Of a stretch of 64,000 nucleotides of DNA, positions 27,811 to 41,358 are shown one piece after another. A program made the translations under genes and the position numbers. This DNA comes from Escherichia coli. GTDB taxonomy: Bacteria; Pseudomonadota; Gammaproteobacteria; Enterobacterales; Enterobacteriaceae. The notes beneath the pieces are model-generated. The model saw nothing but the letters and a program-made list of their open reading frames with translations. It was not told where the DNA came from and searched no databases. Where the stretch lies: the NCBI RefSeq assembly GCF_003018115.1, contig NZ_CP027457.1; one strand, given 5' to 3'. The number at the start of each line of letters is the position of its first letter. Position 1 is the first letter of the stretch.

Positions 27811-30402
27811 ATGCATCAATCTGGTTCTGTTTCTCTTTGTCGTTCCGCAATATCTGTTCTGGTGGCTACAGCGTTATATTCACCCATAGCATTGGCATCA
27901 ACAGTTGAGTATGGTGAGACAGTTGATGGTGTTGTCCTGGAAAAAGATATCCAGCTGGTTTATGGGACCGCCAATAATACGAAAATCAATCCTGGCGGAG
28001 AACAGCATATTAAAGAATTTGGTATAAGTAGTAATACTGAAATTAACGGCGGGTATCAGTACATTGAAATGAATGGCACCGCAGAATACTCCGTATTAAA
28101 TGATGGTTATCAAATTGTTCAAATGGGTGGCGCGGCAAACCAGACTACCCTCAATAATGGTGTGCTACAGGTTTATGGCGCAGCGAATGATCCCACGATT
28201 AAAGGCGGGCGCTTAATTGTTGAAAAAGATGGGATTGCCGTCTTTGCCGCTATCGAAAAGGGAGGATTACTGGAGGTTAAAGACGGGGGATTAGCATTTG
28301 CGGTAGATCAGAAAGCAGGCGGTGCTATTAAAGCAAGCACGCGGGTCATGGAGGTATTCGGAACAAACCGTCTCGGTCAGTTCGAAATCAAGAATGGTAT
28401 TGCTAACAATATGCTGTTGGAAAACGGCGGAAGTTTGCGAGTTGAAGAAAATGACTTCGCTTATAATACTACTGTAGATAGTGGCGGCTTACTGGAGGTT
28501 ATGGATGGCGGGACTGCAACTGGCGTTGATAAAAAAGCAGGCGGAAAATTAATTGTCTCAACGAATGCGCTGGAAGTGAGTGGTACAAACAGTAAAGGCC
28601 AATTTAGTATAAAAGATGGTGTGTCAAAAAATTATGAACTGGATGATGGTTCTGGGCTTATTGTTATGGAGGACACGCAGGCCATTGACACTATCCTCGA
28701 TGAGCATGCCACTATGCAATCGCTGGGAAAGGATACTGGTACGAGAGTGCAGGCAAATGCGGTATATGATCTCGGTCGATCAGATCAGAATGGAAGTATA
28801 ACGTATTCCTCTAAAGCCATCTCTGAAAATATGGTTATCAACAATGGCCGCGCTAATGTCTGGGCTGGCACAATGGTTAACGTTTCAGTCAGAGGGAATG
28901 ATGGCATTCTTGAGGTCATGAAGCCGCAAATAAATTATGCACCCGCTATGTTGGTGGGTAAGGTAGTGGTTTCTGAGGGCGCTTCTTTTAGAACGCATGG
29001 TGCCGTGGATACCAGCAAAGCGGATGTTTCGCTCGAAAATAGCGCATGGACCATCATTGCCGATATCACTACGACGAACCAAAACACCCGCCTTAACTTA
29101 GCCAACCTTGCGATGTCTGGCGCAAATGTGATTATGATGGATGAGCCAGTGACTCGTTCATCTGTGACGGCAAGTGCGGAAAATTTCACTACGTTGACCA
29201 CCAATACCCTGTCGGGAAACGGCAATTTTTATATGCGTACCGATATGGCGAATCATCAGAGCGATCAGCTCAACGTCACCGGTCAGGCAACAGGTGATTT
29301 CAAAATATTCGTGACGGACACCGGTGCCAGCCCGGCAGCAGGAGATAGCCTTACACTGGTAACAACGGGCGGCGGTGATGCTGCATTTACGTTGGGCAAT
29401 GCCGGAGGCGTTGTTGATATCGGTACGTATGAATATACCTTGCTGGATAATGGCAACCATAGCTGGAGTTTGGCAGAGAATCGCGCGCAAATTACCCCTT
29501 CAACCACTGATGTGCTGAATATGGCGGCCGCACAACCGCTGGTATTTGATGCAGAACTGGACACCGTGCGTGAGCGTCTTGGTAGCGTAAAAGGCGTTAG
29601 TTACGATACGGCGATGTGGAGTTCGGCAATTAACACCCGCAACAACGTGACCACTGATGCGGGAGCTGGTTTTGAGCAAACATTGACGGGCCTGACGCTC
29701 GGTATCGATAGCCGTTTCTCCCGTGAAGAAAGCAGTACAATTCGCGGCTTGTTCTTTGGTTACTCTCATTCTGATATTGGTTTTGATCGCGGCGGAAAAG
29801 GTAATATCGATAGCTATACCCTGGGGGCTTATGCCGGTTGGGAGCATCAGAACGGTGCCTATGTTGATGGAGTGCTGAAAGTTGACCGTTTTGCCAACAC
29901 CATCCATGGCAAGATGAGTAATGGGGCAACAGCGTTTGGCGATTACAGTAGTAACGGCGCAGGTGCTCATGTCGAGAGCGGGTTCCGTTGGGTTGACGGA
30001 TTGTGGAGTGTTAGACCCTATCTCGCCTTTACCGGCTTTACCACAGATGGTCAGGACTACACGTTATCAAACGGCATGCGCGCGGATGTGGGAAATACCC
30101 GGATATTACGCGCTGAAGCGGGAACGGCGGTAAGCTATCACATGGACCTGCAAAACGGTACGACGCTGGAACCCTGGCTGAAAGCCGCCGTGCGTCAGGA
30201 ATACGCCGATTCTAACCAGGTGAAAGTTAATGACGATGGCAAATTTAATAATGATGTGGCTGGAACCCGTGGCGTTTATCAGGCTGGGATAAGGTCATCG
30301 TTTACCCCGACGTTAAGCGGTCATTTGTCAGTCAGCTATGGCAATGGCGCAGGGGTAGAATCGCCGTGGAATACCCAGGCTGGTGTGGTCTGGACGTTCT
30401 GA
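27811..30402 (+). CDS. yejO: Autotransporter adhesin-like protein YejO (intact, 863 aa)
   Basis: Signal peptide, repetitive G/N/T-rich passenger, and a C-terminal beta-barrel ending ..AGVVWTF. No IS interruption seen. Confidence 0.85.
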   Translation: MHQSGSVSLCRSAISVLVATALYSPIALASTVEYGETVDGVVLEKDIQLVYGTANNTKINPGGEQHIKEFGISSNTEINGGYQYIEMNGTAEYSVLNDGYQIVQMGGAANQTTLNNGVLQVYGAANDPTIKGGRLIVEKDGIAVFAAIEKGGLLEVKDGGLAFAVDQKAGGAIKASTRVMEVFGTNRLGQFEIKNGIANNMLLENGGSLRVEENDFAYNTTVDSGGLLEVMDGGTATGVDKKAGGKLIVSTNALEVSGTNSKGQFSIKDGVSKNYELDDGSGLIVMEDTQAIDTILDEHATMQSLGKDTGTRVQANAVYDLGRSDQNGSITYSSKAISENMVINNGRANVWAGTMVNVSVRGNDGILEVMKPQINYAPAMLVGKVVVSEGASFRTHGAVDTSKADVSLENSAWTIIADITTTNQNTRLNLANLAMSGANVIMMDEPVTRSSVTASAENFTTLTTNTLSGNGNFYMRTDMANHQSDQLNVTGQATGDFKIFVTDTGASPAAGDSLTLVTTGGGDAAFTLGNAGGVVDIGTYEYTLLDNGNHSWSLAENRAQITPSTTDVLNMAAAQPLVFDAELDTVRERLGSVKGVSYDTAMWSSAINTRNNVTTDAGAGFEQTLTGLTLGIDSRFSREESSTIRGLFFGYSHSDIGFDRGGKGNIDSYTLGAYAGWEHQNGAYVDGVLKVDRFANTIHGKMSNGATAFGDYSSNGAGAHVESGFRWVDGLWSVRPYLAFTGFTTDGQDYTLSNGMRADVGNTRILRAEAGTAVSYHMDLQNGTTLEPWLKAAVRQEYADSNQVKVNDDGKFNNDVAGTRGVYQAGIRSSFTPTLSGHLSVSYGNGAGVESPWNTQAGVVWTF

Positions 30403-30495: not shown

Positions 30496-30517
30496 GGGAT
30501 TTTTGGTCGCACGAGAG
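30496..30517. repeat. Island-distal att repeat (partial copy of tRNA-Pro 3' end)
   Basis: GGGATTTTTGGTCGCACGAGAG versus GGCGATTTGGTCGGCACGAGAG at 41337-41358. Confidence 0.75.
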
Positions 30518-30578
30518 TAGTTTAATTGAACGTGTAACTTAATGATTTAAAAGAATGAGTCTGATTCAACTTTTAAGC

Positions 30579-30602
30579 CGTATAACCAAACGTATAGCTA
30601 AA
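30579..30602. promoter_or_regulatory. Tandem 12-mers CGTATAACCAAA CGTATAGCTAAA (candidate integrase arm-type sites, distal arm)
   Basis: Same motif and orientation as CGTATAACTAAA CGTATAACTAAA at 41189-41212 next to int. Confidence 0.55.
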
Positions 30603-30772
30603 TTTATTTGCTGAAAAAATGTACAATTTAGAGTCAGATTTTCCCAGATGTTTAATTTATAAAACGAAGCTGGCGGCTGTTCTCTGATATGTGGATCCCC
30701 ATATCTGGAACCCTACCGGAATTTTTTTCCGGTTACCCTTTAATCAGGCTGGTGGGCTTTACCTGTTCGGTA

Positions 30773-30795
30773 GGTATGATCATTATGATCATACC
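30773..30795. repeat. Perfect 23-bp palindrome GGTATGATCAT-T-ATGATCATACC
   Basis: 11-bp arms read directly from the sequence. The nearby hairpin ACCGGAA-ttttt-TTCCGGT lies at 30715-30733. Confidence 0.9.
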
Positions 30796-30848
30796 TTTCG
30801 CCCCAATGGGAGGTAAAAGCGCCAACTGGACGGTTAAACCGTCTTTTT

Positions 30849-30883
30849 GTCACATCGTGTCACTGGTTGTCACTCTCCGTCAC
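30849..30883. repeat. Four GTCAC repeats with exact 10-bp phasing
   Basis: GTCACatcgt GTCACtggtt GTCACtctcc GTCAC, starting at 30849, 30859, 30869 and 30879. Preceded by hairpin GACGGTT-a-AACCGTC plus TTTTT. Confidence 0.9.
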
Positions 30884-30910
30884 GATGTCCGCTCGCCTGG
30901 CTGTAAATCA

Positions 30911-31139
30911 AACTACGAAATTTTCGTAGTTGTGAGTAAGCCCCAAAATATGGGGATTACTCTTACTACCCAAACTACGGGTAGTTTCCGTAGTTTCATA
31001 GTCGAGTTGCAGATCTGCAACTCCCCCACCAGCCAGCGCAATTTTGCGCTTTGCTTTAAGTTCAGCGAGTTACAGCGCCGACTTCCTCAAATTGAGGTTG
31101 CCGGAAATATCAACCAGTTACGAGGCTCAAAATTGAGCC
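30911..31139. repeat. Train of seven short palindromes/hairpins in non-coding DNA
   Basis: 30911-31 AACTACGAAAtTTTCGTAGTT; 30941-55 CCCCAaaataTGGGG; 30972-87 AAACTACggGTAGTTT (plus CGTAGTTT at 30989-96); 31004-23 GAGTTGCAGATCTGCAACTC (perfect 20-mer); 31035-50 AGCGCAAttTTGCGCT; 31085-97 CCTCAAaTTGAGG; 31124-39 GGCTCAAaaTTGAGCC. Confidence 0.9.
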
Positions 31140-31156
31140 GCCTTTAAATCAACACG

Positions 31157-31438
31157 TTACCGCCGTAACCGCTCCGGCTTCTTCCAGTTGTACGTAATTT
31201 TCTCTTTCTCCCTGTACATCTCTACACGGCGATTGTAGGCCAGCATTTCAAGAACGCGGATCCGTATGTCGCGCATATCAACGCCATTAAGTTCTATACC
31301 ATCACGGCGCATCACCTCCACCACTACACGCACATAATTATCTGCGGTCATGCTGTCCGGCTGCGTGGCCTGTTCGTCAACCTGCTGGCTGATTCCGGCG
31401 ACGCGGCGGATTAATCCCAGTATTTCGGCTTCTGTCAT
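31157..31438 (-). CDS. Hypothetical island protein (93 aa)
   Basis: ORF with ATG preceded by a G-rich SD-like stretch. Follows repeat copy 1. No recognisable motif. Confidence 0.5.
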   Translation of the reverse strand: MTEAEILGLIRRVAGISQQVDEQATQPDSMTADNYVRVVVEVMRRDGIELNGVDMRDIRIRVLEMLAYNRRVEMYREKEKITYNWKKPERLRR

Positions 31439-31475
31439 TGTGCCCCCATCGCGCTGGTGAAGAAAACAAGCTCAG

Positions 31476-31690
31476 ATTTTTTGTAAAGAATCTGTCACGC
31501 TAAAAGATGTCGAACAAAAAACAACCTTCTTCATCATCTTTTTTACATCAAAGCAATTAAAAACAATCACTTACGAACATGATGATGATGACGATAAAAT
31601 CAAAAAAATGCGTTTTTTTCCGCGCCGCCCGCCCCGTGTTCAGGCCCACCCCACCAGGAGGACCCGCAAAAAAGGCGGCTGGTGCCGCCT
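31476..31690 (-). repeat. Copy 1 of ~215-bp island repeat (terminator + G-rich cos-like core + A/T tracts)
   Basis: Aligns block by block with 34015-34228. Shared blocks: TTTTTGTAAA, GAACAAAAAACAACC, ATAAAATCAAAAAAATGCG, TTTTTCCGCGCC, CCGCCCCGTG, CAGGCCC..CCCCACCAGGAG and the terminator hairpin. Confidence 0.85.
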
Positions 31691-31695
31691 TGTTG

Positions 31696-33585
31696 TCATA
31701 GTGAATCGGTACCGCCTGATTTGACCATACCGCGATAATCCAGAGCTGCCACACCTGCATCAATACGGACTTTCCAGGCCACGCCGTCAACGATAAAACC
31801 TTCCTGCTGTTCAAGGTAAGGCTCGTCATTGCCATCAAGATAAGCCACCTCGATTGTGTCCGTTCCCTGTGCGGAAAGCATGTACCATTGTTTTTCGCTG
31901 ATATCATCAAGGCGGGGATCGACGATGATATCAAGTAGCTTGTGGTACGGGTTAAAGATCCCGCTGTTTTTATCAGCCCCGAAAGGTGCGGTTGAGTTAA
32001 TCATCTGCAACGCGCGATCTTCCAGTGCTGCCGGAACTAAAAGGAATTTAGGCGCAATATTCAGCACTTCGCCATTTTTGTCCTTCTGTGTGCGCATCAG
32101 GTGACGTGCTGCACTAAGTCCCGGTGTTGTCAGTCCTGCTTCAATCAGGTTGCTGTGTTTTTTGTCAAACAGCGTTATTCCGTCAGAAAGTTTTACGTTG
32201 CCTGTAAGCACCAGATTAACCAGATTTCCCACCGTTCTTGATGCTGCACGGCCCATAGCCATTGGCACCGTTGATAACTGATCAAGGTCATCATTGATTA
32301 TCGCCTGGCGGGTAATGCTGAAAATATTCCCGTAAGTAGCCAGCGCGATGGGTTCACCGCGATCGCTGGTGGTGATGTATTTATATTCTGCCCCTTCCGG
32401 CACTTTGTTTAACGTTGAGAAGCCATTCATACCAACGCGGCGGGCTTCCCGGAAGTTTGAAAGGGAACCTTTTTTCGTCCACTGGCGGAATGTTTCGCCG
32501 CTGTGCTCCCAGCCTGCAAGCACTGATTTTTCAGCGCCACCAGCAAGGATATCGGTAAAATCGCTGCTGCTGTGGGTGAATGCCGCGTTTACTATCTGCG
32601 AGCGTGTGCCGTAGCTGCCCGTGCTTATACCACGATGGGTTAATGATGCCTGTGCCATATCGAAAAGGCTCATCATGGCGTAAGGATTACCGCGTTCGGC
32701 CCGTTCGTGACCAAGACGCGCATTAAGCCCCTGACGCATGGCATCGCCGGTTATATTGCCGTTATCCGTGTACGCGTAGTAAAGATTTGCGGGGGTGGTT
32801 TTGTTTGTTGGCGTTGATTCTTTACCCATAGCGAGTAAAAGGCGTTCGCGTGCATTCTCAACGCTACATTCTGAATCCGCAAGACAACTTATAGCCAGGT
32901 CGTTATATCTTCCGTTGAAGGTGCCAAACAATTCACGGATTCCGTTAAGTCGTTCCTGTTCGCCACTGCCAGTTTTCTGGCTGATCATGCTTTTAATTTT
33001 TTCCGGCATATTTGAAAAATCTCCGATTCGTTTTGATTCAATTCGGGCCATTGCTGTAATCGCGGGTATAACCTCATCTGCGAAGCCGTTAGCCTTACAC
33101 TCATTGCCATCCATCCAGGTTTCCGCCTCCATCATTGAGGTGATCTCCTGTTTGCTCCTGCCCGTTCTTCCGGCATAGGTTTCTGCCATCGTGTCGCCCA
33201 GCTTGTCCATCAGATCAGCAAAGCGGCGAACGTCGCCCGACACTCCGGCAGTAACACCACGGGGGGCATGTATCATCATCATCGCGTTTTCAGGCATAAC
33301 GATGTGATCTCCACACATGGCAATAAACGACGCCATAGAAGCCGCCATGCCTTCAATGTGTACGATTTTTTTTGCCGGATGATTTTTCAGGGCGTTATAG
33401 ATAGCCAGCCCTTCAAAGATGTCGCCACCAGGTGAATGAATGCTCAGATGGATTTCAGACGCATTACCACACGCGTTGATCTCGTCAGTAAGTGCCGATG
33501 CTTTTACACCGTACCCGCCGATCTCGTCATAAATGCGCACATAGACAACATCTGCCATAGCCTTAATGGAAAACCATGTTTTCAT
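31696..33585 (-). CDS. ClpP-family prohead protease fused to phage major capsid protein (629 aa)
   Basis: N-terminus: IHSPGGDIFEGLAIYNAL..GMAASMASFIAMCGD..MMMIHAPRG (ClpP/S14-like Ser and His motifs). The C-terminal ~330 aa resembles HK97-fold/Mu gpT-like capsid proteins (..ALATYGNIFSITRQAIINDDL..WYMLSAQGTDTIEVAYLDG..). Assignment is from memory of the family, not from a search. Confidence 0.75.
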   Translation of the reverse strand: MKTWFSIKAMADVVYVRIYDEIGGYGVKASALTDEINACGNASEIHLSIHSPGGDIFEGLAIYNALKNHPAKKIVHIEGMAASMASFIAMCGDHIVMPENAMMMIHAPRGVTAGVSGDVRRFADLMDKLGDTMAETYAGRTGRSKQEITSMMEAETWMDGNECKANGFADEVIPAITAMARIESKRIGDFSNMPEKIKSMISQKTGSGEQERLNGIRELFGTFNGRYNDLAISCLADSECSVENARERLLLAMGKESTPTNKTTPANLYYAYTDNGNITGDAMRQGLNARLGHERAERGNPYAMMSLFDMAQASLTHRGISTGSYGTRSQIVNAAFTHSSSDFTDILAGGAEKSVLAGWEHSGETFRQWTKKGSLSNFREARRVGMNGFSTLNKVPEGAEYKYITTSDRGEPIALATYGNIFSITRQAIINDDLDQLSTVPMAMGRAASRTVGNLVNLVLTGNVKLSDGITLFDKKHSNLIEAGLTTPGLSAARHLMRTQKDKNGEVLNIAPKFLLVPAALEDRALQMINSTAPFGADKNSGIFNPYHKLLDIIVDPRLDDISEKQWYMLSAQGTDTIEVAYLDGNDEPYLEQQEGFIVDGVAWKVRIDAGVAALDYRGMVKSGGTDSL

Positions 33586-33776
33586 AGCCAGGCTCCTAAC
33601 GTTGCCTGGTACCAGTATTCAACCGCGCTGCGTGTGATTTGTCCTTTCGTGGGCACTGGCATACCCGGGTGATTATCTTTGATGAACTGCTGATAGCGTT
33701 CGATCTTCTCCATAGTTCCGGCGTCTATGTGCACAGTGGCACTTTTATCCGGCTTTCTGGTGTTGTTCTCTGGCAT
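33582..33776 (-). CDS. Small protein (64 aa from second Met), possibly ribbon-helix-helix-like, translationally coupled to the capsid fusion
   Basis: GGAGG lies 7 nt before the ATG at 33776 (MPENNTRK..). The stop overlaps the capsid-fusion start (ATGA). The pattern TVHIDAGTMEKIERY..TKGQITRSAVEYWY suggests a beta-alpha-alpha fold. Confidence 0.55.
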   Translation of the reverse strand: MPENNTRKPDKSATVHIDAGTMEKIERYQQFIKDNHPGMPVPTKGQITRSAVEYWYQATLGAWL

Positions 33777-33970
33777 AAATCCGCCTCCGTTTTGATTAAC
33801 GGGCATCATTATTGATCGATAAAAGTAATAGATAAATCATTTTCTACCTGAAAATCAGATTATGTTTTTTCTGATTATCCTCAGAGAGGCAAAGCCATTG
33901 ACGCATTTTTGCTATTGAAGCAATATTAAGACTCGTCATCCTGGCGATAAAAACTCCTTTGTCGTGTAAA

Positions 33971-34008
33971 AGCGCCTCCGGTAACAGCAATCGGGGGCGC
34001 TTTTTTTT
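33971..34008. terminator. Strong hairpin flanked by A8/T8 in the leader of the capsid operon (bidirectional terminator-like)
   Basis: GCGCCTCCG-11 nt-CGGGGGCGC (9 bp, one G.T) followed by TTTTTTTT on the plus strand. On the minus strand the same stem is followed by TTTTAC. Confidence 0.6.
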
Positions 34009-34014
34009 GCGCCT

Positions 34015-34228
34015 GTTTTTTGTAAATGTTTTCGGGAACGTTCCAGTGATGAACAAAAAACAACCCGATTCGACACTAAAAATTTTTATTCCTCAATATA
34101 TCAATAGCTTATAGTGGTGGTGATGGTGCCATAAAAATCAAAAAATGCGCCTTTTTCCGCGCCCCTCCGCCCCGTGGACAGGCCCCCCCCACCAGGAGTA
34201 CCTACAAAAAAGCCGGATTGCTCCGGCT
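34015..34228 (-). repeat. Copy 2 of ~215-bp island repeat
   Basis: See copy 1. The terminator AGCCGGA-ttgc-TCCGGCT plus a T-run (minus strand) lies immediately after the PerC-like gene. Confidence 0.85.
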
Positions 34229-34234
34229 GTGTGA

Positions 34235-34507
34235 TTAGCTGTCTTGGTAATTACACCATATTTCATCGCTTACACCATCTATACCCATTTCAGCATAAGT
34301 GCGATCTACTGCCTTTCTCAGGTCTCCGAAGTTATCCGGCGGCTCCGGTGGCCTCTGTGCCTTCCTGGAACATTCCAGCCGTCGCATCGTAACCTGATGC
34401 CGTTCCTTGTCTGTCTCCACCAGCTGCATGACTTCACCCCATCGCGCCGCCGCCCTCCGGTAAAATCCTTTCGCCTCGAGTTCCTCCGCTATGCGGTCAT
34501 GTATCAT
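34235..34507 (-). CDS. PerC-family-like transcriptional regulator (90 aa)
   Basis: The N-terminal pattern IAEELEAKGFYRRAAARWGEVM resembles the AE.LE..G..RRAA.RW signature I recall for PerC/Pch proteins. Confidence 0.5.
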   Translation of the reverse strand: MIHDRIAEELEAKGFYRRAAARWGEVMQLVETDKERHQVTMRRLECSRKAQRPPEPPDNFGDLRKAVDRTYAEMGIDGVSDEIWCNYQDS

Positions 34508-34772
34508 CGCCTGACTCTCCGGTTTTTACGTTGATGGTTGTTACCTGTTCCGCTTCGGCAATCTCCCGTTCTGTCAACGTGGCAAAGTTTGCCGCCGCTG
34601 TGGTCATGAATGCGCTTATCAGTTCGGGATGCTCCTTCGCGTATCCTTCCCCCGCGTGGCGGTCTATTACCCTGATTGCCACCTTTAAGGCGTGCTCTGT
34701 CATGTCTAACGCTTTATATTTCGGCTCTGTTCTGTCTCTGCGCATTTTGGTTATCTCCTCACTCATGCTCAC
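34497..34772 (-). CDS. Hypothetical island protein (91 aa, GTG start)
   Basis: ORF overlaps the downstream gene by 11 nt. Part of the tightly packed operon. Confidence 0.5.
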   Translation of the reverse strand: MSMSEEITKMRRDRTEPKYKALDMTEHALKVAIRVIDRHAGEGYAKEHPELISAFMTTAAANFATLTEREIAEAEQVTTINVKTGESGDDT

Positions 34773-34958
34773 TTTTACACCTCACTTTTTAAAGCGTCTC
34801 GCTTCGTCTCACTTGATATTTTTTGATGCTTTATGTGTGTGTTTCATAAGGATTTTTTTACTCCTCACTTTTGAGCATGTATACAGGTGAGAAAGTGAGT
34901 AATCGTGTTAATATTTTGTAAAAACCTCACCATTACTCACTTTTGCTACTCACTTTTT
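34758..34958. repeat. Iteron cluster (CTCACTTTT family) flanking an AT-rich core: candidate island replication origin
   Basis: CTCACT(T) copies at 34758, 34768, 34781, 34808, 34864, 34936 and 34949; CTCACC at 34926; inverted GGTGAG/AAAGTGAG at 34886-34899. The AT-rich stretch is 34815-34862. Lies immediately 3' of the replication ATPase gene. Confidence 0.6.
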
Positions 34959-36366
34959 ACAGTGGTCCTACATCATCACCATCAATGTAAATCACGGCGT
35001 CTTTTTCCAGTTTGGCTAACCATCGCCGCATATTTTTCACGTCATACCCAAGCCGTTTCATGTCATCACGTAACAGCGGGATCGTGCACTTGTCGCCGTT
35101 CTGTGTGCGTGAACGGATGCACCCCCATAGTGCGGTATGGTTTTCCGTCTTGTTGCCTGCCTCCTCGATGCGTTCCAGTTCAACGGGAGGGCGCGGCTTA
35201 TCCACCACCACCAGCGACGTGATTAACTCCCCGTCAGCGTCGGTAAACAGCTCCACCACGCGTAAGTCATATGCGGCTTCTTTGAGTTCCTCCGCGTCCT
35301 TCATTTTGGTGCATGAGATAACCAGCGCTTCGCTTCCTGCGTCCTCCCTGCGTATCCGGTATTCAGCATCCAGTGATGCACGAAATGCACTGGAACCGCG
35401 CGCGCCTTTCGTCTCATCCTTGCCGGAATGGTGAACCACCAGCACCGTGGCCCCTGTGCGTCGTTTCAGTTCGTCACAACCACGGATAAACGCCCCCATA
35501 TCACGGGAATCATTTTCATCATTCCCACCAAAGCAACGCGCCAGCGTATCCAGAATAATCATGCGTACAGGTTTACCCGTTTCCCGCTCCACCTGACGGG
35601 CAGCGATAACCATTTCATCAACATCAAGCGGGACCGCCGGAAAGATGGGACGGTTTACCAGATACAGATTTTTCACCTGCTCACCGTGCACAACCTCCCA
35701 GGCTTTTACACGACGCGGAACGCCGATACCGCCTTCACCAACCACATAGAGAACAGCGCCATGCGCCACCCTGCGGCCTCCCCACTGGCGGCCCGTGGAA
35801 ACGTGACACGCCCACGATCCGGCAAGGAATGATTTATAGGAACCGCTCGCCCCGTATATGCTGCAAAGCGACGATGCCGGAATAATCCCCTTTACCACGT
35901 AATCAAGCTGTGTGTCGTATCCGGTAGATCCAACGCTCATCGGTAGCGTGGTTTTTCGCTGGGGGATTTTTTTCATGACCAGGCTTTCCCCGCGTTCCCA
36001 TGCCTCCCTAAGCCGTGGAAGCTGGTCGCTCCATTCCTCCAGCAATTCGAAATTTTCAGAAAGTAGCCGCGCCTCCTGGACTCCGGCGATCGCCAGTTTC
36101 GTGGCGATGGTTAACAGCTGCGGCTCTTCAATATTTCCGGCGCGTATCACCGTCGCCCTGTATCGCCCATCATCAACAATCTGGAGGTTATCCAGTTTGC
36201 TTAACTGATAACGCCCCAGATAAACGGGAGGGACTGGATCGCCTGCTTTTTTGGCCTGTGCAATGATGTAATGCTCTGCGAATGAGTGAGCATCAATACC
36301 CGCAAAAATAATCGCATCGGTGTATTTATCTTTCGGTAATCGTTTTACGTTCGGTGCCAGTTTCAT
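34957..36366 (-). CDS. Replication ATPase, RepA/AAA_25 (RecA-like helicase) family, 469 aa
   Basis: Walker A GASGSYKS, Walker B RMIILDT and VVHHSGKD motif, typical of RepA-like helicases of plasmids and satellites. N-terminal ~140 aa unassigned. No zinc-finger or Toprim primase motifs seen. Confidence 0.7.
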   Translation of the reverse strand: MKLAPNVKRLPKDKYTDAIIFAGIDAHSFAEHYIIAQAKKAGDPVPPVYLGRYQLSKLDNLQIVDDGRYRATVIRAGNIEEPQLLTIATKLAIAGVQEARLLSENFELLEEWSDQLPRLREAWERGESLVMKKIPQRKTTLPMSVGSTGYDTQLDYVVKGIIPASSLCSIYGASGSYKSFLAGSWACHVSTGRQWGGRRVAHGAVLYVVGEGGIGVPRRVKAWEVVHGEQVKNLYLVNRPIFPAVPLDVDEMVIAARQVERETGKPVRMIILDTLARCFGGNDENDSRDMGAFIRGCDELKRRTGATVLVVHHSGKDETKGARGSSAFRASLDAEYRIRREDAGSEALVISCTKMKDAEELKEAAYDLRVVELFTDADGELITSLVVVDKPRPPVELERIEEAGNKTENHTALWGCIRSRTQNGDKCTIPLLRDDMKRLGYDVKNMRRWLAKLEKDAVIYIDGDDVGPL

Positions 36367-36662
36367 TTTTTACCCCTGAATCCGTTAATCATGGTTTTCA
36401 GCTTCTGGATGTTTGCCCGTGCCCTGGCGTTGCTGGTGGGCACGTTATGCGGCGCGGTCTGTACCAGAGAAAAATCACGCCGGAACTGATAAACAGGCAT
36501 CACGCAATCATATTCGTAACCTTCACGGCGGTAAGTTACGCACCGTCCCGCCACGCCCTTAATCATTACCGTGCCGCCGTACTGGTCGCGGTAAATATCA
36601 CCGCGCGTAAATTTAGGGTGAGTGTTGCCACTGGCAGTTAAGCCAGAATATTTAAGTTTCAT
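36363..36662 (-). CDS. Small protein, DUF4222-like (99 aa)
   Basis: The pattern YRDQYGGTVMIKGVAGRCVTYRREGYEYDCVMP resembles remembered DUF4222 proteins found upstream of satellite replication genes. ATGA overlap with the ATPase gene. Confidence 0.45.
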   Translation of the reverse strand: MKLKYSGLTASGNTHPKFTRGDIYRDQYGGTVMIKGVAGRCVTYRREGYEYDCVMPVYQFRRDFSLVQTAPHNVPTSNARARANIQKLKTMINGFRGKK

Positions 36663-36667
36663 TATTT

Positions 36668-36901
36668 TTATTCTCCGGTGTGCTGTTCGTTATATCTGTC
36701 GTGCAATGTCTCTATTTCCTGCAACTCATTTATTACAGGCTCAAGAAGCGTTATTAATGCCGTGGCAATTCTTGATTTTTGTTTGTCGCGTTCATTGTCG
36801 CCAAGTGTTTCAAGCCATATGCGCAATATTTCCATCATATTTTCACTGTGAGAAAGTGCAAGAAATACGCGATCTGTTGTTTCGTGGTAAATATCACGCA
36901 T
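36668..36901 (-). CDS. Hypothetical small helical protein (77 aa)
   Basis: ORF packed 1 nt after the upstream stop. Confidence 0.5.
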   Translation of the reverse strand: MRDIYHETTDRVFLALSHSENMMEILRIWLETLGDNERDKQKSRIATALITLLEPVINELQEIETLHDRYNEQHTGE

Positions 36902-36902
36902 A

Positions 36903-37124
36903 TTAATTACCGTCCGTTGTTTTTCTTAAAACAGCTTCTGTCACGAAATCGGCATAGTTAGCGGCAATATCAAGAATATTTAGCCCTGTATCTCTGTGCT
37001 CATCAGTGCAAAGAAAGAAAAAAGCCACCCGCATAATTTCAGATATTGACGAAAGCGCATCAGCCGCATCATCAGGAACGCCGGAAAATTCTTGTTTCAG
37101 GGAATAAAAACGATCATCACGCAT
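36903..37124 (-). CDS. Hypothetical small protein (73 aa from MRDDRFY)
   Basis: The ATG at 37124 overlaps the upstream stop (ATGCGTGA) and is preceded by a GGGGGGG SD-like run. Confidence 0.5.
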   Translation of the reverse strand: MRDDRFYSLKQEFSGVPDDAADALSSISEIMRVAFFFLCTDEHRDTGLNILDIAANYADFVTEAVLRKTTDGN

Positions 37125-37356
37125 AACCCCCCCCATTTTCACAATCAGTAATCAGGATGGTTTTAGCCTCATTCAGTGCCATATCAGCACTAAATTGCAT
37201 AACAGCCAGTGAGTGAGGAACGAAAGCCCCGGTATATTCTGTTTCGCTGGTGGCGTGCTTATGTGCCCTGTCCGCGATAACAGAAATATCAATCAGCGCG
37301 TGCATCAGCGTTTTGATGGCTTCGGCGGCTGCGTCCGGTGTGGTTTTATTGTGCAT
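37117..37356 (-). CDS. Hypothetical small protein (79 aa)
   Basis: ORF overlaps the upstream ORF by 11 nt. Confidence 0.5.
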   Translation of the reverse strand: MHNKTTPDAAAEAIKTLMHALIDISVIADRAHKHATSETEYTGAFVPHSLAVMQFSADMALNEAKTILITDCENGGGYA

Positions 37357-37675
37357 AAAGCATCCCCTGAATATTCGTGTTAATCATTCCGGCACGTTTT
37401 GTGATTTCCTGTAATGATTCCCTTGTGGCGACAATTGCTTCATCTGGTAAGTGGTAATTACACACCACGCGACCTTTATCCACATTGACCAGTAGCTGCC
37501 CTGTGAATTTCTCACGAAACTGAATGCGGTTAAGGTCAGTAAGTGACAGATTAATAATGGCGCACCTCCTGACGAATACGGGCGGCAAATACAGCAACAC
37601 AACCGGACGGGCAACGGTTACGCGCTTCGCGTTCCGTCCAGGCGGTGACGTGGATGATTTGAGATTCTCCGGCAC
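37346..37675 (-). CDS. Hypothetical protein, start uncertain (109 aa from GTG 37675; ~71 aa if initiated at ATT 37558 after AGGAGG)
   Basis: Long open frame overlapping the icd-like ORF out of frame. A strong AGGAGG (37570-37565) has no canonical start codon at proper spacing, only ATT. Confidence 0.4.
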   Translation of the reverse strand: MPENLKSSTSPPGRNAKRVTVARPVVLLYLPPVFVRRCAIINLSLTDLNRIQFREKFTGQLLVNVDKGRVVCNYHLPDEAIVATRESLQEITKRAGMINTNIQGMLYAQ

Positions 37676-37748
37676 TCAGGGCCAGAAAACGCCACACAAA
37701 GGCAGTTTGTGTGTGTACAAGGTGTGGTATATGATTTACGGCAACCAT
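37551..37748 (-). CDS. Small protein (65 aa), tentatively Icd-like (host cell division inhibitor family)
   Basis: GAGGAG SD 5 nt before the ATG. First gene of the leftward operon. The pattern FVWRFLALS..IIHVTAWTEREARNR..VFAARIRQEV resembles my recollection of Icd-like proteins of P4-like elements. Unverified. Confidence 0.5.
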   Translation of the reverse strand: MVAVNHIPHLVHTQTAFVWRFLALSAGESQIIHVTAWTEREARNRCPSGCVAVFAARIRQEVRHY

Positions 37749-37812
37749 AACGGCTCCTCGTTTACGTTGTTGGTTAGAAGCCCCGTTACTGCTCCTACAG
37801 TGCGGGGTTTCG
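37742..37812 (+). ncRNA. Candidate small RNA A (cis-antisense to the RBS/start of the icd-like gene)
   Basis: Promoter-like TTGTGT (37707-12) -17 bp- TATGAT (37730-35). Hairpin GCCCCG-17 nt-CGGGG (37780-37807) followed by TTTCGTCGTTTC. A homologous unit lies at 38453-38565. Confidence 0.35.
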
Positions 37813-37837
37813 TCGTTTCAACACCTTGCCTAAATAA

Positions 37838-37891
37838 GGTGTTGAACACCAATTTAAATCGAGGTGTTAAACACGTCAAGTGTTGAACACT
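37838..37891. promoter_or_regulatory. Three palindromic operators (GGTGTTGAACACC family) overlapping divergent promoter-like hexamers
   Basis: 37838-50 GGTGTTgAACACC (perfect); 37863-75 GGTGTTaAACACG; 37879-91 AGTGTTgAACACT (perfect). Minus strand: TTGACG (37879-74) -17- TAAATT (37856-51). Plus strand: TTGAAC (37883-88) -17- CATACT. Confidence 0.6.
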
Positions 37892-37940
37892 TATTTTTTT
37901 TCCTGCATACTGCATTTGTTTTTTATGAGGGGTGCTCAAC

Positions 37941-38120
37941 ATGGCGACAAAAGCAGTAAACGCAAAATCACAAACAGTTGCGGCAAGGGTTCCACATGAA
38001 GTTATGAACAATGTTGAGGCGGTAAAAATGCCCGGCGAAAGTACAGGGCAGTTTGTTACAGCTGCATTAAAGCGGGAAGTTGAATACCGCCAGCGTCGCA
38101 AGGCCAAAGAATCAGAATAA
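37941..38120 (+). CDS. Ribbon-helix-helix DNA-binding protein 1 (59 aa)
   Basis: ATG preceded by GAGGGG. TVAARVPHEVMNNVEAV..STGQFVTAALKREV fits a beta-strand/helix/helix (CopG/Arc/MetJ) layout. Confidence 0.65.
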   Translation: MATKAVNAKSQTVAARVPHEVMNNVEAVKMPGESTGQFVTAALKREVEYRQRRKAKESE

Positions 38121-38177
38121 TCACTATCAGCGCCGTGGTGTGAGGTACTACGGCGCATTGCTTTACAGGGCAGTATC

Positions 38178-38405
38178 ATGACCAACAACACACTATCACC
38201 AATACAAGACACGCAAACGCAAGATGATGAAATCATCCGGCAAAGGCAGTCAGAAGCCTGCGCCAGACTTGAGGAAGAACTAACCAGAACAAAAATACCA
38301 CCACCAGCGCCGCGCTTAGTGCCACCAGAAAAATTTGCCCTTGAAGATTTTGTCGATAAATACCCACGGCGGCTTAAATCCGGCAAAAACCGACCGCCTG
38401 GCTGA
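38178..38405 (+). CDS. Small protein (75 aa), paralog of 38856..39059
   Basis: MTNN.. start. Shares the motif F.L(E/D)(D/E)F(V/L).KY.R with the second copy. Confidence 0.5.
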   Translation: MTNNTLSPIQDTQTQDDEIIRQRQSEACARLEEELTRTKIPPPAPRLVPPEKFALEDFVDKYPRRLKSGKNRPPG

Positions 38406-38487
38406 GTGCACAAAACCGAACTATGAAACGGATTATTCCGTTTCCGGGGCGTTTGTGTGTGTATAAAGAGTAAGCTATGCTCTTTTA

Positions 38488-38565
38488 TAGCCATAATCGT
38501 TACCTCAATTAATGGTTTGGTTAGACGCCCCGTATGTGAGCCACCACTGCGGGGCGTTGTTTTTT
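38488..38565 (+). ncRNA. Candidate small RNA B (homolog of RNA A with a strong intrinsic terminator)
   Basis: TTGTGT (38453-58) -17 bp- TATGCT (38476-81). TTGGTTAGA, then stem ACGCCCCG (38525-32) / CGGGGCGT (38550-57), then TTGTTTTTTG. Confidence 0.4.
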
Positions 38566-38583
38566 GTATAACGGTAAGTACAA

Positions 38584-38624
38584 TGGTAATTACCATGTAA
38601 CTATAGTAATTAAGGGTAATTACC
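38584..38624. promoter_or_regulatory. Palindromic operators GGTAATTACC (x2, plus a degenerate middle copy) at the RHH-2 start
   Basis: TGGTAATTACCA at 38584-95, AGTAATTAAG at 38605-14, GGTAATTACC at 38615-24, abutting the ATG at 38625. Confidence 0.55.
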
Positions 38625-38798
38625 ATGTCAACACCATTGGAAAAGCGATCGCCTCCATACCAAATGCGGCTACCAGAAGAATTCAGAGCACAACTTGAAG
38701 AGGCAGCGAAAGCAGACGGTGACACTTCTTTAGCCACCTGGATCAAGCGAGTACTCCGAAAAGAATTACAGCAACGCGGTATTGAACCCAAAGGATAA
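38625..38798 (+). CDS. Ribbon-helix-helix (Arc-like) DNA-binding protein 2 (57 aa; below the ORF-track cutoff)
   Basis: Manual translation gives MSTPLEKRSPPYQMRLPEEFRAQLEEAAKADGDTSLATWIKRVLRKELQQRGIEPKG. The MRLPEE..L..AA...G.S....I pattern is typical of Arc/MetJ-type repressors. AAGGG SD lies 8 nt upstream. Confidence 0.6.
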   Translation: MSTPLEKRSPPYQMRLPEEFRAQLEEAAKADGDTSLATWIKRVLRKELQQRGIEPKG

Positions 38799-38855
38799 AA
38801 AACATCAGCGCCGTGGCGTGAGGAACTCCGGCGCATTGCTTTACAGGTACACACA

Positions 38856-39059
38856 ATGACCAACAAAGAATCAACCAATACACCATCGCAAAAAACGAAC
38901 AGAGAGCACGAAAATATGGCGTTCGAGCATGAATCAGAAAGATTCGCACCATGCGCTTTTGTCCTTGATGAGTTTCTAAAAAAATATTCACGTTCTGAAC
39001 GGATGAAAATGGCAGCACAATACGGCCCCAACAAGCAAGATAATTGCCCACCAGCCTGA
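38856..39059 (+). CDS. Small protein (67 aa), paralog of 38178..38405
   Basis: MTNK.. start with FVLDEFLKKYSRSERMK motif. Preceded by the conserved 44-nt hairpin block. Confidence 0.5.
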   Translation: MTNKESTNTPSQKTNREHENMAFEHESERFAPCAFVLDEFLKKYSRSERMKMAAQYGPNKQDNCPPA

Positions 39060-39127
39060 TCGCGGTTATCATGCCCGGGCTTATGATTGTTGACACATAC
39101 GGCGCAGCGGGTTAATTGTTCAGAAAG

Positions 39128-39156
39128 GTGGCTCCATTTCGGGGCCGCTTTTTTTA
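39128..39156 (+). terminator. Rho-independent terminator ending the rightward RHH operon
   Basis: GGCTCC-atttc-GGGGCC stem, then GC and TTTTTTT. Confidence 0.6.
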
Positions 39157-39180
39157 TGTTCATCATTTGCCCTATATATG

Positions 39181-39387
39181 TTAAGCGGTCGTTCCGCGCG
39201 CTTCTTGTTCGCGTTCTTTCATCCATGCGATTACGTCTTCCTCATACCATCCGCGACGGCGCAAACCGACACGAAAACCCTGCGGGAATTCTCCGGCGTT
39301 GATCATGCTTTGCAGCGTGCTGTCTGCCTTAATGTGGATAAGTTTTTTTACTTCCTGGCGAAAGATGACTTTTTTGATTGCTTCCAT
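39181..39387 (-). CDS. AlpA-family phage regulatory protein / excisionase-like (68 aa)
   Basis: The pattern ..LIHIKADSTLQSMINAGEFPQGFRVGLRRRGWYEEDVIAWM.. matches the MerR-like wHTH AlpA/Xis family signature (R.v.W...dV..W). Confidence 0.8.
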   Translation of the reverse strand: MEAIKKVIFRQEVKKLIHIKADSTLQSMINAGEFPQGFRVGLRRRGWYEEDVIAWMKEREQEARGTTA

Positions 39388-39406
39388 CGTGATTTACCTC
39401 ATTAAT

Positions 39407-39488
39407 CCGGTGTATTCCGGTGAGAAATACGGTAAATCATCGGATGCAGGGAAAAACAGTACTCACCGTTTTTAAACGGTATACACCG
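39407..39488. promoter_or_regulatory. Nested inverted repeat across the alpA promoter region
   Basis: CCGGTGTAT (39407-15) and CCGGTGAG (39417-24) pair with CTCACCG (39462-68) and ATACACCG (39481-88). Confidence 0.55.
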
Positions 39489-39520
39489 TTTTTTATATTG
39501 ATGATTTGAAAGGGATTTAT

Positions 39521-39546
39521 AAAAAAAGCGGCATTTCTGCCGCTTT
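39521..39546 (-). terminator. Rho-independent terminator after orf83
   Basis: Minus strand: GCGGCA-gaaa-TGCCGC followed by TTTTTTT. Confidence 0.7.
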
Positions 39547-39554
39547 CAGGATTG

Positions 39555-39806
39555 TTACCGCCATTTTTTTGGCCTGCCTCCGGTCTTCATGGATGCCGGA
39601 CGTACAACCTTATCAATACTTACAGCCAGATTTCTGGAAGCCCCACGGGATACCAGGAAATCTACTACCTGTTTTTTTGATGGGGCCGTCGTTCTGTCCT
39701 CCGGATCGTAGGTTGACCAAAATTCATGCTGAACCATCAGGGCCAGTTGCAGCCCGTCGCAATTGCATCTGAAATTTGTTTGCATCTTAACAGTTTCATT
39801 TTTCAA
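39555..39806 (-). CDS. Hypothetical protein (83 aa) downstream of int, basic C-terminus (GGRPKKWR)
   Basis: ORF between int and its terminator. No confident family assignment. Confidence 0.45.
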   Translation of the reverse strand: MKNETVKMQTNFRCNCDGLQLALMVQHEFWSTYDPEDRTTAPSKKQVVDFLVSRGASRNLAVSIDKVVRPASMKTGGRPKKWR

Positions 39807-39883
39807 GGCCTCGTCGTTAAATGTGATGCAATTATACGACGGTTTTAAATGGTTTTCGTAGTTTTTACTGGTTTTCTGTACAG

Positions 39884-41125
39884 CTAAACGGCTCGGATAC
39901 CCCTTTTACCACTGGCGAGGGTTACGCCCGTCGCCGCAGCCTCGACAAATTCGCCCCACCAGCGCATAAGCACGATGCGTTTTTCTATGTAGTTGCTCCG
40001 GTTGTATGCCCGTCTGACTTCGTTGGTGTCGACGTGGGCAAGTGCGGCCTCTATTACGTCCGGCTCAAAGCCTTCTTCGTTCGCTGCTGTGCTGAATATG
40101 GCGCGTAATCCATGAGACACCAGCACGCCAGCGAATCCCATGCGTCGTAATGCTGCGTTAGCGGTCTGGCTGTTCATCGGCTGCTGTGGGTCTTTCAGAC
40201 TCGGGAAAACATAATCGCGGTGGTGGCTGATTGGTTTCATAGCCTCCAGCACTGCCATAGCCTGGTCACAAAGCGGGATAACGTGGTCGCGGCGCATCTT
40301 CATGCGTCCGGCGGGTATGGTCCAGCGTTGCGCTTCCATGTCGATTTCTTCCCAGCGTGCCGACGATGCTTCAACGGGACGGGTTACGGTCAGTAACTGC
40401 CATTCAATCAGTAATCTGGTCTGCCGTTCTGTTGCCGATACTGATAAAGCCTGCATAAGCTCCGGCAGCTGTTCGGGGCGGATTGTTGGCATATGTTTTT
40501 TTACAGGGGAGGGGAACGCCTTACGCACATTCATAGCCGGATTGGCATCAATCATCCCACTATTGGCGGCGTAATCCATTACCTCATTTATACGCTGTAA
40601 AACTCGCTTGAGCGTTTCCAGGTTGCCACGTTCCTTGATGGGGGTAAGCACCTCAACGAACCTGCGAGCGGTCAGGGTGTCTATTGGCGTGTTGCCGATG
40701 AACGGGAATACATATTTTTCCAGCGATCGCCAGATGTCTTTAATCGTATTGGGGGCCAGATTCTGGCTGATTTTCACCTGGTACCATGCTGTTGCCACAT
40801 TTTCGAACGTGTTCCCTTGTCTTCGGGCCTCTGTCTCTCTTTTTTGCCTCTCGTGGTCCTGCGGGTCAGTTCCGGCACGAATTAACGCCCTGTACTCGCT
40901 ACGGCGTTTTCTGGCATCAGCCAGGGAAACATCATCAAGCGATCCAAAACTCAGCAATATTCTTTTTTTGTCCGATGGTCGGTAGTAGGAAAATCTCCAG
41001 AGTTTTGATCCGGACGGTTTGATCAGGAGAAAAAGCCCTCCGCCGTCCTGTAGGGTGTATTCCTTTTCTGCTGGTCTGGCTGCTTTGATCTGTACTGTGG
41101 TTAATGGGGGTGTTTTTCTCGCCAT
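39884..41125 (-). CDS. Tyrosine integrase, P4-type (413 aa)
   Basis: N-terminal DUF4102-like arm-binding region (LTTVQIKAARPAEKEYTLQDGGGLFLLIKPSGSKLWRF). C-terminal catalytic motifs (HGLRAIFST..AHVDTNEVRRAYNRSNY). Adjacent to the tRNA. Confidence 0.92.
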   Translation of the reverse strand: MARKTPPLTTVQIKAARPAEKEYTLQDGGGLFLLIKPSGSKLWRFSYYRPSDKKRILLSFGSLDDVSLADARKRRSEYRALIRAGTDPQDHERQKRETEARRQGNTFENVATAWYQVKISQNLAPNTIKDIWRSLEKYVFPFIGNTPIDTLTARRFVEVLTPIKERGNLETLKRVLQRINEVMDYAANSGMIDANPAMNVRKAFPSPVKKHMPTIRPEQLPELMQALSVSATERQTRLLIEWQLLTVTRPVEASSARWEEIDMEAQRWTIPAGRMKMRRDHVIPLCDQAMAVLEAMKPISHHRDYVFPSLKDPQQPMNSQTANAALRRMGFAGVLVSHGLRAIFSTAANEEGFEPDVIEAALAHVDTNEVRRAYNRSNYIEKRIVLMRWWGEFVEAAATGVTLASGKRGIRAV

Positions 41126-41156
41126 ATGCTTATGATTCCAAACGAAAAAACAGGGT

Positions 41157-41212
41157 TTTAGTTATACGGCTTTAGTTATACGTCAGCCCGTATAACTAAA
41201 CGTATAACTAAA
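41157..41212. promoter_or_regulatory. Four 12-mers (2 direct TTTAGTTATACG + 2 inverted CGTATAACTAAA) upstream of int
   Basis: Copies at 41157-68, 41171-82, 41189-200 and 41201-12. Same motif as 30579-30602 at the other island end. Confidence 0.6.
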
Positions 41213-41215
41213 AAA

Positions 41216-41336
41216 TCCGGCTGATAGCTTATAAATCCGGTGATGTTCGGTGACTAAAAACCATAAAAAAACCCGCCAATCAAGTAATTGGCGGGCTATC
41301 CCTGTCTTATTCGATGATTTCCGGTGGTATCCGGTG
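41216..41336. promoter_or_regulatory. Cluster of TCCGGTG-type motifs between int and the att core
   Basis: TCCGGCTG at 41216, TCCGGTG at 41236, TTCGGTG at 41246, TCCGGTG at 41320 and 41330. The same heptamer occurs twice in the alpA promoter (39406-39424). Confidence 0.5.
41264..41295 (-). terminator. Rho-independent terminator downstream of proL (supplied by island DNA)
   Basis: Minus strand: CCCGCCAAT-loop-ATTGGCGGG followed by TTTTTTT. Confidence 0.7.
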
Positions 41337-41358
41337 GGCGATTTGGTCGGCACGAGAG
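41337..41358. repeat. tRNA-proximal att repeat
   Basis: GGCGATTTGGTCGGCACGAGAG. Pairs with 30496-30517. Confidence 0.75.

Follow-up and report, generated by a model that had tools for sequence, protein, structure and literature searches.

Why should a small satellite island carry two cos-like sites in the same orientation, one on either side of its capsid gene? The question was raised by a string at 34130-34200, on the minus strand of the window (the whole 64,000-nt stretch of DNA analysed here), which a preliminary description had read as a second, diverged cos-like core. The string was confirmed letter for letter, together with the run of eight G quoted as preceding it (34183-34190, within copy 2). 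A core common to two copies about 2.5 kb apart had also been described, and the 9-mer ACGGGGCGG was indeed found on the minus strand in two places of the 64-kb window, 34167-34175 and 31629-31637, at a distance of 2,538 nt. As stand-alone evidence the 9-mer was rejected, because its count was at the level expected by chance from shuffling (2 seen against 0.63 expected; two or more in 16 of 100 shuffles). The extended element lies far beyond chance, as indicated by a direct repeat of copies 1 and 2 over 111 nt without gaps, by a gapped alignment of about 200 nt with 78% column identity, and by an nhmmer cos profile, trained on phage and island cos sites, which had just two matches in the 64 kb, as follows.

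34045-34215, minus strand: cos copy 2, a complete lambdoid site with cosB of class B (1720a-02/CP-1639 type); nhmmer 143.9 bits, E=3e-43.
31505-31678, minus strand: cos copy 1, a complete lambdoid site with cosB of class A (VT1-Sakai type); nhmmer 142.5 bits, E=8e-43.

The centres of the two copies were unlike, as had been noticed, with GGGCGG-GCGGC in copy 1 and GGGCGG-AGGGGC in copy 2. The two cores bracket the capsid operon, also as described, with orf75 and the gene of a ClpP/major capsid protein (MCP) fusion lying between them. The 8-G run was particular to this window; other islands showed GGGGGTGG or GGGGTGGG at the same site.

Both copies are carried by an integrated element with the following features.

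30502-41358, minus strand: whole satellite of about 10.84 kb, delimited by att sites and gene content.
41342-41358: attL core, the 3' end of tRNA-Pro(GGG), found by local alignment with the tRNA 3' end.
39884-41125, minus strand: int, a P4-type integrase (gene calls).
39181-39387, minus strand: AlpA (gene calls).
36363-36662, minus strand: DUF4222 gene (gene calls).
34957-36366, minus strand: AAA_25 replicase (gene calls).
34235-34507, minus strand: PerC-family regulator gene, upstream of copy 2 (Pfam PF06069, E=1e-43).
33582-33809, minus strand: orf75, a small conserved ORF before the capsid gene (phrog_4934).
31696-33585, minus strand: ClpP-like prohead protease/major capsid fusion of 629 aa (Pfam CLP_protease and Phage_capsid_4, phrog_133).
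31157-31438, minus strand: orf93, the conserved last gene of Gram-negative PICIs, downstream of copy 1 (phrog_1561).
30502-30517: attR, a copy of the tRNA 3' end with a 1-nt deletion, found by local alignment with the tRNA 3' end.

These elements follow one another, all on the minus strand, in the order integrase, AlpA, small ORFs, DUF4222, AAA_25 replicase, a 91-aa ORF, PerC, copy 2, orf75, the ClpP/MCP fusion, copy 1, and orf93. Judged by its integrase, AlpA, replicase, one-strand genes, size within 10-20 kb, and att site, the island is a Gram-negative PICI. No terminase, portal, tail, or lysis gene was found in the island, and the lack of terS is as expected of a satellite. Searches of the window for Rpp/TerS homologues with RppA, lambda Nu1, and Sakai TerS as queries gave no tblastn match better than E=0.25. 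Only the ClpP/MCP fusion is present, without the full head and packaging module (terS, terL, HNH, portal, protease, capsid, and connectors) that marks a cf-PICI such as the one in contig L011; the regulatory part is common to the island and the O157:H7 cf-PICI. The fusion may build small heads, or it may poison the heads of the helper, as Ccm of SaPIbov5 does, or it may be dispensable, like c1499 of EcCICFT073.

A generic repeat search of the window for att sites detected none, and the local alignment with the tRNA 3' end succeeded. One base of attL (GTGCCGACCA) is deleted in attR (GTGCGACCA), a loss in keeping with the published observation that PICIs damage tRNA fragments at attR (PMC10111431). 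Repeats of TTTAG(T/C)TATACG inside both island ends, at 30578-30602 and 41154-41212, are probably integrase arm sites, and an AIDA/pertactin-type autotransporter adhesin gene lies directly outside attR at 27811-30402. Within the island, a 75-nt repeat (80% identical) at 38114-38188 and 38792-38866 precedes two small plus-strand ORFs, 38178-38405 and 38856-39059, both of which start with MTN… and are opposed to the other island genes; the 496-aa minus-strand ORF over both of them (37736-39226) looks spurious. Iteron-like repeats (CCTCAC…ACTCACTTTT…) were observed at 34746-34794 and 34914-34962, just downstream of the replicase gene. This is the usual place of PICI replication origins.

Alignment with the joined ends of lambda showed the full order of a cos site in both copies, namely cosQ, cosN, an R3-like element, an IHF-type site, and an inverted R2-like element, with a short GC hairpin and then a T run after cosN. 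What had been described as cos-like from its core was thus found to have the whole cosQ-cosN-I1-cosB order. The subsites are listed below.

34205-34228, minus strand: intrinsic-terminator hairpin of the PerC gene, AGCCGGAGCAATCCGGCT and a T run, abutting cosQ of copy 2 (terminator scan).
34197-34203, minus strand: heptamer AGGTACT at the cosQ position of copy 2 (alignment; lambda and Sakai have GGGTCCT).
34157-34176, minus strand: cosN of copy 2, CACG^GGGCGGAGGGG^CGCGG, aligned to lambda ACG^GGGCGGCGACCT^CGCGGG.
34114-34130, minus strand: candidate R3 of cosB in copy 2, GGCACCATCACCACCAC, at about bp 43-59 from the predicted end.
34099-34111, minus strand: candidate IHF site at the I1 position of copy 2, TAAGCTATTGATA (read from the sequence and by alignment with lambda I1).
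34051-34076, minus strand: candidate inverted R2 GTGTCGAAT and conserved block GGTTGTTTTTTGTTC of copy 2 (alignments).
31659-31665, minus strand: cosQ of copy 1, GGGTCCT (alignment with lambda).
31620-31638, minus strand: cosN of copy 1 (alignment with lambda).
31578-31593, minus strand: R3 of copy 1, CGTCATCATCATCATG (alignment).

In cosN of copy 2, the CG at both nick flanks and the left half GGGCGG are intact and the right half is variable. From its position in lambda, the top-strand nick of copy 2 is predicted to fall between 34173 and 34172, and the predicted cohesive-end segments are 34162-34172 in copy 2 and 31625-31634 in copy 1. In lambda-like phages selection acts on the left half of cosN and on the CG flanks; bp 7-12 of the cohesive end vary naturally with no measurable effect on nicking by terminase (Feiss et al., PMC4669245). 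The stress laid by the preliminary description on the roughly 8 diverged nucleotides was misplaced, since these fall in the naturally variable bp 7-12; the informative difference between the copies lies downstream, in cosB. Across the phages of this cos family (the window and L035-L114), the segment from CG to CG was 10, 11, or 12 nt long (GGGCGGGCGG, GGGCGGGCGGG, GGGCGGCAGCGG), which predicts cohesive ends of unequal length, the length being independent of cosB class.

The heptamer that aligns with cosQ in copy 2 differs from GGGTCCT at two positions; according to Feiss et al., natural variation of cosQ is not apparent in lambda-like phages (PMC4669245). The same AGGTACT variant was found in phage Fels-1 and in a Rahnella island, and GGGTCCT in some sister islands. 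The cosB of copy 2 is 110 nt long, the same length as that of 1720a-02, to which it is 93% identical, and the phage homology of copy 2 stops at the block GGTTGTTTTTTGTTC. The candidate IHF site fits the reverse strand of the IHF consensus, which we take to be WATCAANNNNTTR. The position of the R3 candidate agrees with that of R3 in lambda (bp 50-65) and in N15 (bp 48-60) (PMC9026076). The cosN and cosB characters of a lambdoid cos site (PMC4669245, PMC9026076) are present in the sequence of copy 2, which by this measure is a structurally complete lambdoid cos site.

A terminator hairpin like that at 34205-34228 also precedes cos in EcCICFT073 and in the contigs L022 and L025. The hairpin …CCGGAG(C/A)AATCCGGC with its T run was observed directly upstream of cosQ in the window, near 2500 in L012, near 6830 in L022, and near 2340 and 4770 in L025; in phages a different hairpin (GATGATAACCATTATCA) fills this position. 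Since hairpin and cosQ are paired in this way at several cos sites of PICIs, they may form a mobile "terminator-cos" cassette.

The phage homologues of the cos element sit between Rz and a 158-aa protein located upstream of a lambda-A-like large terminase, a position seen in VT1-Sakai, 1720a-02, CP-1639, and Fels-1 as well as in 81 viral contigs. The 158-aa protein is annotated as DUF1441 and as "terminase small subunit" (phrog_141/phrog_57), and its first 60 or so residues gave a weak profile match (probability 10%) to the winged helix of lambda gpNu1. When the copies were compared by BLAST with 50,697 phage records, the best matches of copy 1 were VT1-Sakai and several Stx2 phages (84-87% over 87% of its length), and those of copy 2 were 1720a-02 and CP-1639 (90% over 75% of its length). 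Segment alignment of cosB gave the following identities.

cosB of copy 1: 84% to Sakai, 69% to 1720a-02.
cosB of copy 2: 70% to Sakai, 93% to 1720a-02.

The two cosB segments of the island were 69% identical to each other. Among 49 phage cos sites, the cosB of copy 1 was 75-85% identical to class A and 66-70% to class B, and that of copy 2 was 72-95% identical to class B and 65-71% to class A, so that the ranges for the two classes did not overlap for either copy. A simple internal duplication was rejected, as each copy is nearer to its own phage class than to its partner. The identity of cosB to phage (84-93%) also stands against that of the capsid gene, the sole gene shared, whose ClpP/MCP fusion is 50-57% identical at the protein level to the equivalent gene of helper prophages.

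The small terminase subunits of the two phage classes differ in a corresponding manner. TerS of Sakai and TerS of 1720a-02 are near-identical from about residue 67 to the end and strongly divergent in the first 65 or so residues, and the divergence is greatest where, by a weak alignment, the recognition helix of gpNu1 ends and the wing lies (PMC9026076). In lambda, the C-terminus of TerS binds TerL, and specificity is attributed to cosB and the N-terminal winged helix (PMC4669245, PMC9026076). Our analysis showed that the TerS wing motif and the cosB R motif covaried in all 81 phage loci collected from IMG/VR and GenBank, which held 23 distinct TerS sequences, with no discordant case. TerS with APGxNEK went with CATCATCAT cosB in 49 loci, and TerS with GGHESNL went with CATCACC cosB in the other class (32 loci, CATCACC occurring with class B TerS in 32 of 32). 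The Fisher p value of 3e-23 for this covariation is only indicative, since the loci are related. The rule also held for distant TerS proteins, Fels-1 (58% identical to Sakai TerS) belonging to class A and mEp460 (52% identical) to class B. At the level of these motifs, the covariation has its counterpart in the cosB/Nu1 specificity classes of lambda and phage 21. Class B cosB with terS was found in 226 of 5,426 complete E. coli genomes and class A in about 401, and O157:H7 strains were among the matches listed for both classes.

Taken with the subsites, these class assignments argue for reading copy 2 as a genuine second cos, with a cosB class unlike that of copy 1, so that the two sites would serve two helper classes; we give this reading a probability of roughly 0.6. 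Binding, cleavage, and a widened helper range are what we infer from it. Upon induction of a helper, the island would be excised and replicated. TerS of a class B helper (1720a-02/CP-1639, lambdoid Stx-type), together with IHF, would then bind the cosB of copy 2, which is of the CACCATCACC type, and bring TerL into place for a nick at the GGGCGGAGGGG core, and packaging from copy 2 would run toward orf75 and the capsid gene. At copy 1, the CATCATCATC-type cosB would be used in like manner by a helper of the VT1-Sakai type (class A). An Rpp-type adaptor should not be needed, since the cosB of each site is a copy of the phage's own, and with two phage-type cosB classes the island would be packageable by two terminase classes without such an adaptor. 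That the copies may serve different helpers had been proposed at the outset, and the cosB classes and the TerS covariation lend this support. That one copy might be a relic or a decoy, also suggested there, keeps some probability. The accompanying doubt, that two cos sites would be odd for packaging, does not hold, as EcCICFT073 has two cos sites that function in experiments (PMC6092414, PMC6739421).

Copies 1 and 2 split the excised circle into two arcs, one of 2.5 and one of 8.3 kb. In lambda-like phages, termination does not need a matching cosB and is efficient at heterologous cos, and 2 mismatches among the 12 positions of the cohesive end cause only an approximately fourfold loss of yield (PMC4669245). 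Mixed copy 1/copy 2 ends would differ in both sequence and length, and chromosomes with mismatched cohesive ends could arise from a direct pair of cos sites that lie 2.5 kb from each other and have unlike ends.

At least 80% of the segment 31100-34600 was carried by 142 of 5,426 complete E. coli genomes, O157:H7 included. In O157:H7 strain ECP19-198 (contig L010, 2549-12967), the dual-cos capsid module lies in a PICI that splits the terL of a lambdoid prophage, and the prophage's own cos (about 832-1000 in the same contig) is of class A and identical to that of VT1-Sakai; a "helper-embedded PICI" configuration has already been described (PMC10111431). The exact centre of copy 2, ACGGGGCGGAGGGGCGCGGAA, was found in 19 IMG/VR contigs, all of them satellites; no phage with this exact cosN centre was found in IMG/VR, and in none of the 19 contigs does the site adjoin terS. 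[quoted passage not shown] In every contig that was long enough, the order was cos (class B, AGGGG), orf75, capsid gene, cos (class A), and orf93, and this order occurs on PICI backbones whose integrases are 22-100% identical to that of the present island. The dual-cos modules were about 97-99% identical to one another; on these identities they are one recent lineage, and their recurrence does not demonstrate selection.

An alternative, which we regard as less likely, is that copy 2 arose without selection, as a by-product when modules recombined between PICIs or phages. It would be a cassette carried with the orf75-capsid module, or a junction of that module, intact only through its youth and neutral or mildly harmful to transfer. 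The near-identity of the module in every dual-cos island is in keeping with this, and so are the distant relatives of the orf75-capsid module: in one-genome-per-species data only three were found, in Kluyvera, Trabulsiella, and Rahnella, and each has a single cos at the position of copy 1, downstream of the capsid gene. Mosaicism of cos points the same way, with swaps on the cosQ side in L016, L028, L029, and L031 and hybrid cos sites in two further contigs. In the first of these, L022 (IMGVR_UViG_2703718800_000016), a single hybrid cos at 6837-7010, with a left part of copy 2 type, an AGGGG centre, and a class A cosB, is followed directly by orf93, without orf75 or a capsid gene; it looks like a deletion of the capsid module by recombination between the direct repeats cos2 and cos1. 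The second, L025 (IMGVR_UViG_2778261349_000007), has three cos sites, at 2312-2485 (plus strand), about 4796 (plus strand), and about 5674 (minus strand). The site at 2312-2485 is of the Stx-phage class A with an AGGGG centre and lies upstream of a capsid module of the lambda E/D type; the remaining sites have lambda-type cosN (GGGCGGCGACCT) and are inverted around a 180-aa TerS/Rpp-like gene.

Experiment adds to the case for a by-product: the second cos of EcCICFT073 was dispensable with the helpers tested and its deletion raised transfer (PMC6092414), which counts against a need for copy 2. The absence of AGGGG from the 81 phage cos sites, the noncanonical cosQ, and the single cos of the distant relatives likewise count against the reading of two sites for two helpers. 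On the other side, the subsites of copy 2 are intact, with a variant heptamer at the cosQ position, its cosB is 93% identical to that of an abundant phage class while its flanks are unrelated to phage DNA, and the two copies were never of one class in at least 15 contigs showing both. A scar would not be expected to retain R3, I1, and R2 at the right spacing, an argument that is weakened by the young age of the module.

It is distinctly improbable, in our judgement, that copy 2 acts mainly as a sink for terminase, or as a site of termination or length adjustment, and not in initiation. As a sink, it would compete with the helper cos for class B terminase and thereby interfere with the helper, as a phage-type cosB on a replicating satellite would be placed to do for helper TerS. 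As a length-adjusting site, it would supply extra cut points and so more packageable lengths (the arcs of 2.5 and 8.3 kb in a unit of 10.8 kb), the island having about one quarter of the length of the helper genome. Termination requires cosQ and cosN and no matching cosB, and heterologous termination is efficient (PMC4669245), but in copy 2 it is cosQ that is least canonical and cosB, the part for initiation, that is best conserved; the mismatch of mixed cos1/cos2 ends in sequence and length also speaks against such a role.

Hardly credible is the last alternative, allowed for by the preliminary description, that the motif is no packaging site at all and is instead a G-quadruplex, an RNA element, or a promoter or activator site (of PerC, for example) for the capsid operon: the strand is G-rich, ViennaRNA with quadruplexes allowed placed a quadruplex in the GGTGGGGGGGG run of copy 2, and both copies come after a terminator and before genes that need a promoter, but the predicted quadruplex has only two tetrads and requires the strain-specific 8-G run that is missing from other islands, no canonical G4 (four G3+ tracts, loops of at most 7 nt) was found in either copy or in the phage sites, the Rfam scan gave no RNA family at either cos, the scan for sigma-70-like promoters gave none inside either element, and about 170 nt of homology connect the element to the phage sites between Rz and terS and to lambda cos.

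Reading copy 2 as a second cos for a second helper class invites comparison with EcCICFT073, the nearest known system. Both are PICIs with int, alpA, replicase, PerC, a capsid gene, and a terminal orf93 (84% identical) in syntenic arrangement, and both carry two lambda-type cos sites in the late region. In EcCICFT073, cos1 and cos2 are both functional, and cosB decides which of them a helper or adaptor uses (PMC6092414, PMC6739421). Its cos sites, however, are inverted and flank rppA (L012, 2556 on the plus strand and 3304 on the minus strand), whereas those of the present island are direct repeats flanking the capsid gene; its cosN centre is that of lambda (GGGCGGCGACCT); and its capsid gene is lambda E/D-like and not a ClpP/MCP fusion. 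The cosB segments of EcCICFT073 resemble no phage cosB, and for this reason the Rpp adaptor is needed, the non-phage cosB being read by an Rpp-TerS heterodimer (PMC6739421). In the present island, each cosB is of phage type (84-93% identical) and of a differing class, and neither mark of an Rpp-dependent cos, an island rpp gene or a non-phage cosB, was found.

The specificity classes of lambda, 21, and N15 share with the present sites the subsite order cosQ, cosN, R3, I1, R2 and the conserved CG flanks and GGGCGG (PMC4669245, PMC9026076). Unlike lambda, the helpers have a TerS of DUF1441/phrog_141 type whose similarity to gpNu1 is remote, and 10-11 nt separate the CG flanks here, against 12 nt in lambda. 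Unlike in all three phages, two specificity classes share one small replicon. The island 11capE and its relatives are also Gram-negative PICIs with a capsid gene, they contain a stretch of about 258 bp that is 90% identical to helper cos, and the O157:H7 version of the present module lies inside prophage terL as they do (PMC10111431). They differ in having one helper-like cos, and two classes are not discussed (PMC10111431); the present island is located at tRNA-Pro, outside a prophage.

SaPIbov5, SaPIbov4, and P4 are likewise satellites that carry the helper's own cos, and they differ in having unrelated sequences, hosts, or helper families. SaPIbov5 combines two packaging modes and hence has two usable helper types. 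For these three satellites, we know of no documented case of two cos sites matched to two TerS classes. Two putative cos sites have been mentioned for SaPIbov4 (as cited in PMC6092414). In the literature searched, no island was found whose two cos sites copy the cosB of two helper TerS classes, nor was a rule linking TerS wing and cosB motif for DUF1441-type terminases.

Two functional cos sites in a PICI, PICIs with helper-like cos and a capsid gene, and classes of cosB/TerS are already known (PMC6092414, PMC10111431, PMC4669245, PMC9026076). The occurrence of two cos sites in an E. coli PICI has been known since 2018, and the reason for the second was left open (PMC6092414). The present island family offers an answer from sequence that is testable in a week, namely that each site copies the cosB of a different class. 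A bolder idea, which we hold to be rather improbable, is that Gram-negative PICIs may gather swappable terminator-cosQ-cosN-cosB cassettes of different TerS specificity as the main determinant of helper range, and that the AGGGG half of the satellites may be adaptive; if so, it could prevent satellite ends from annealing with those of the helper or of the second cos on the island and leave only cyclisation of cos2 to cos2. If the reading of two sites for two helper classes is true, the helper range of a satellite would be readable from its sequence by the rule of cosB motif and TerS wing (81 of 81 loci concordant), which is of relevance to PICI-based DNA delivery particles that use more than one helper. 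Competition for packaging between these islands and Shiga-toxin phages may occur in EHEC, where phages of both classes are present alongside the islands.
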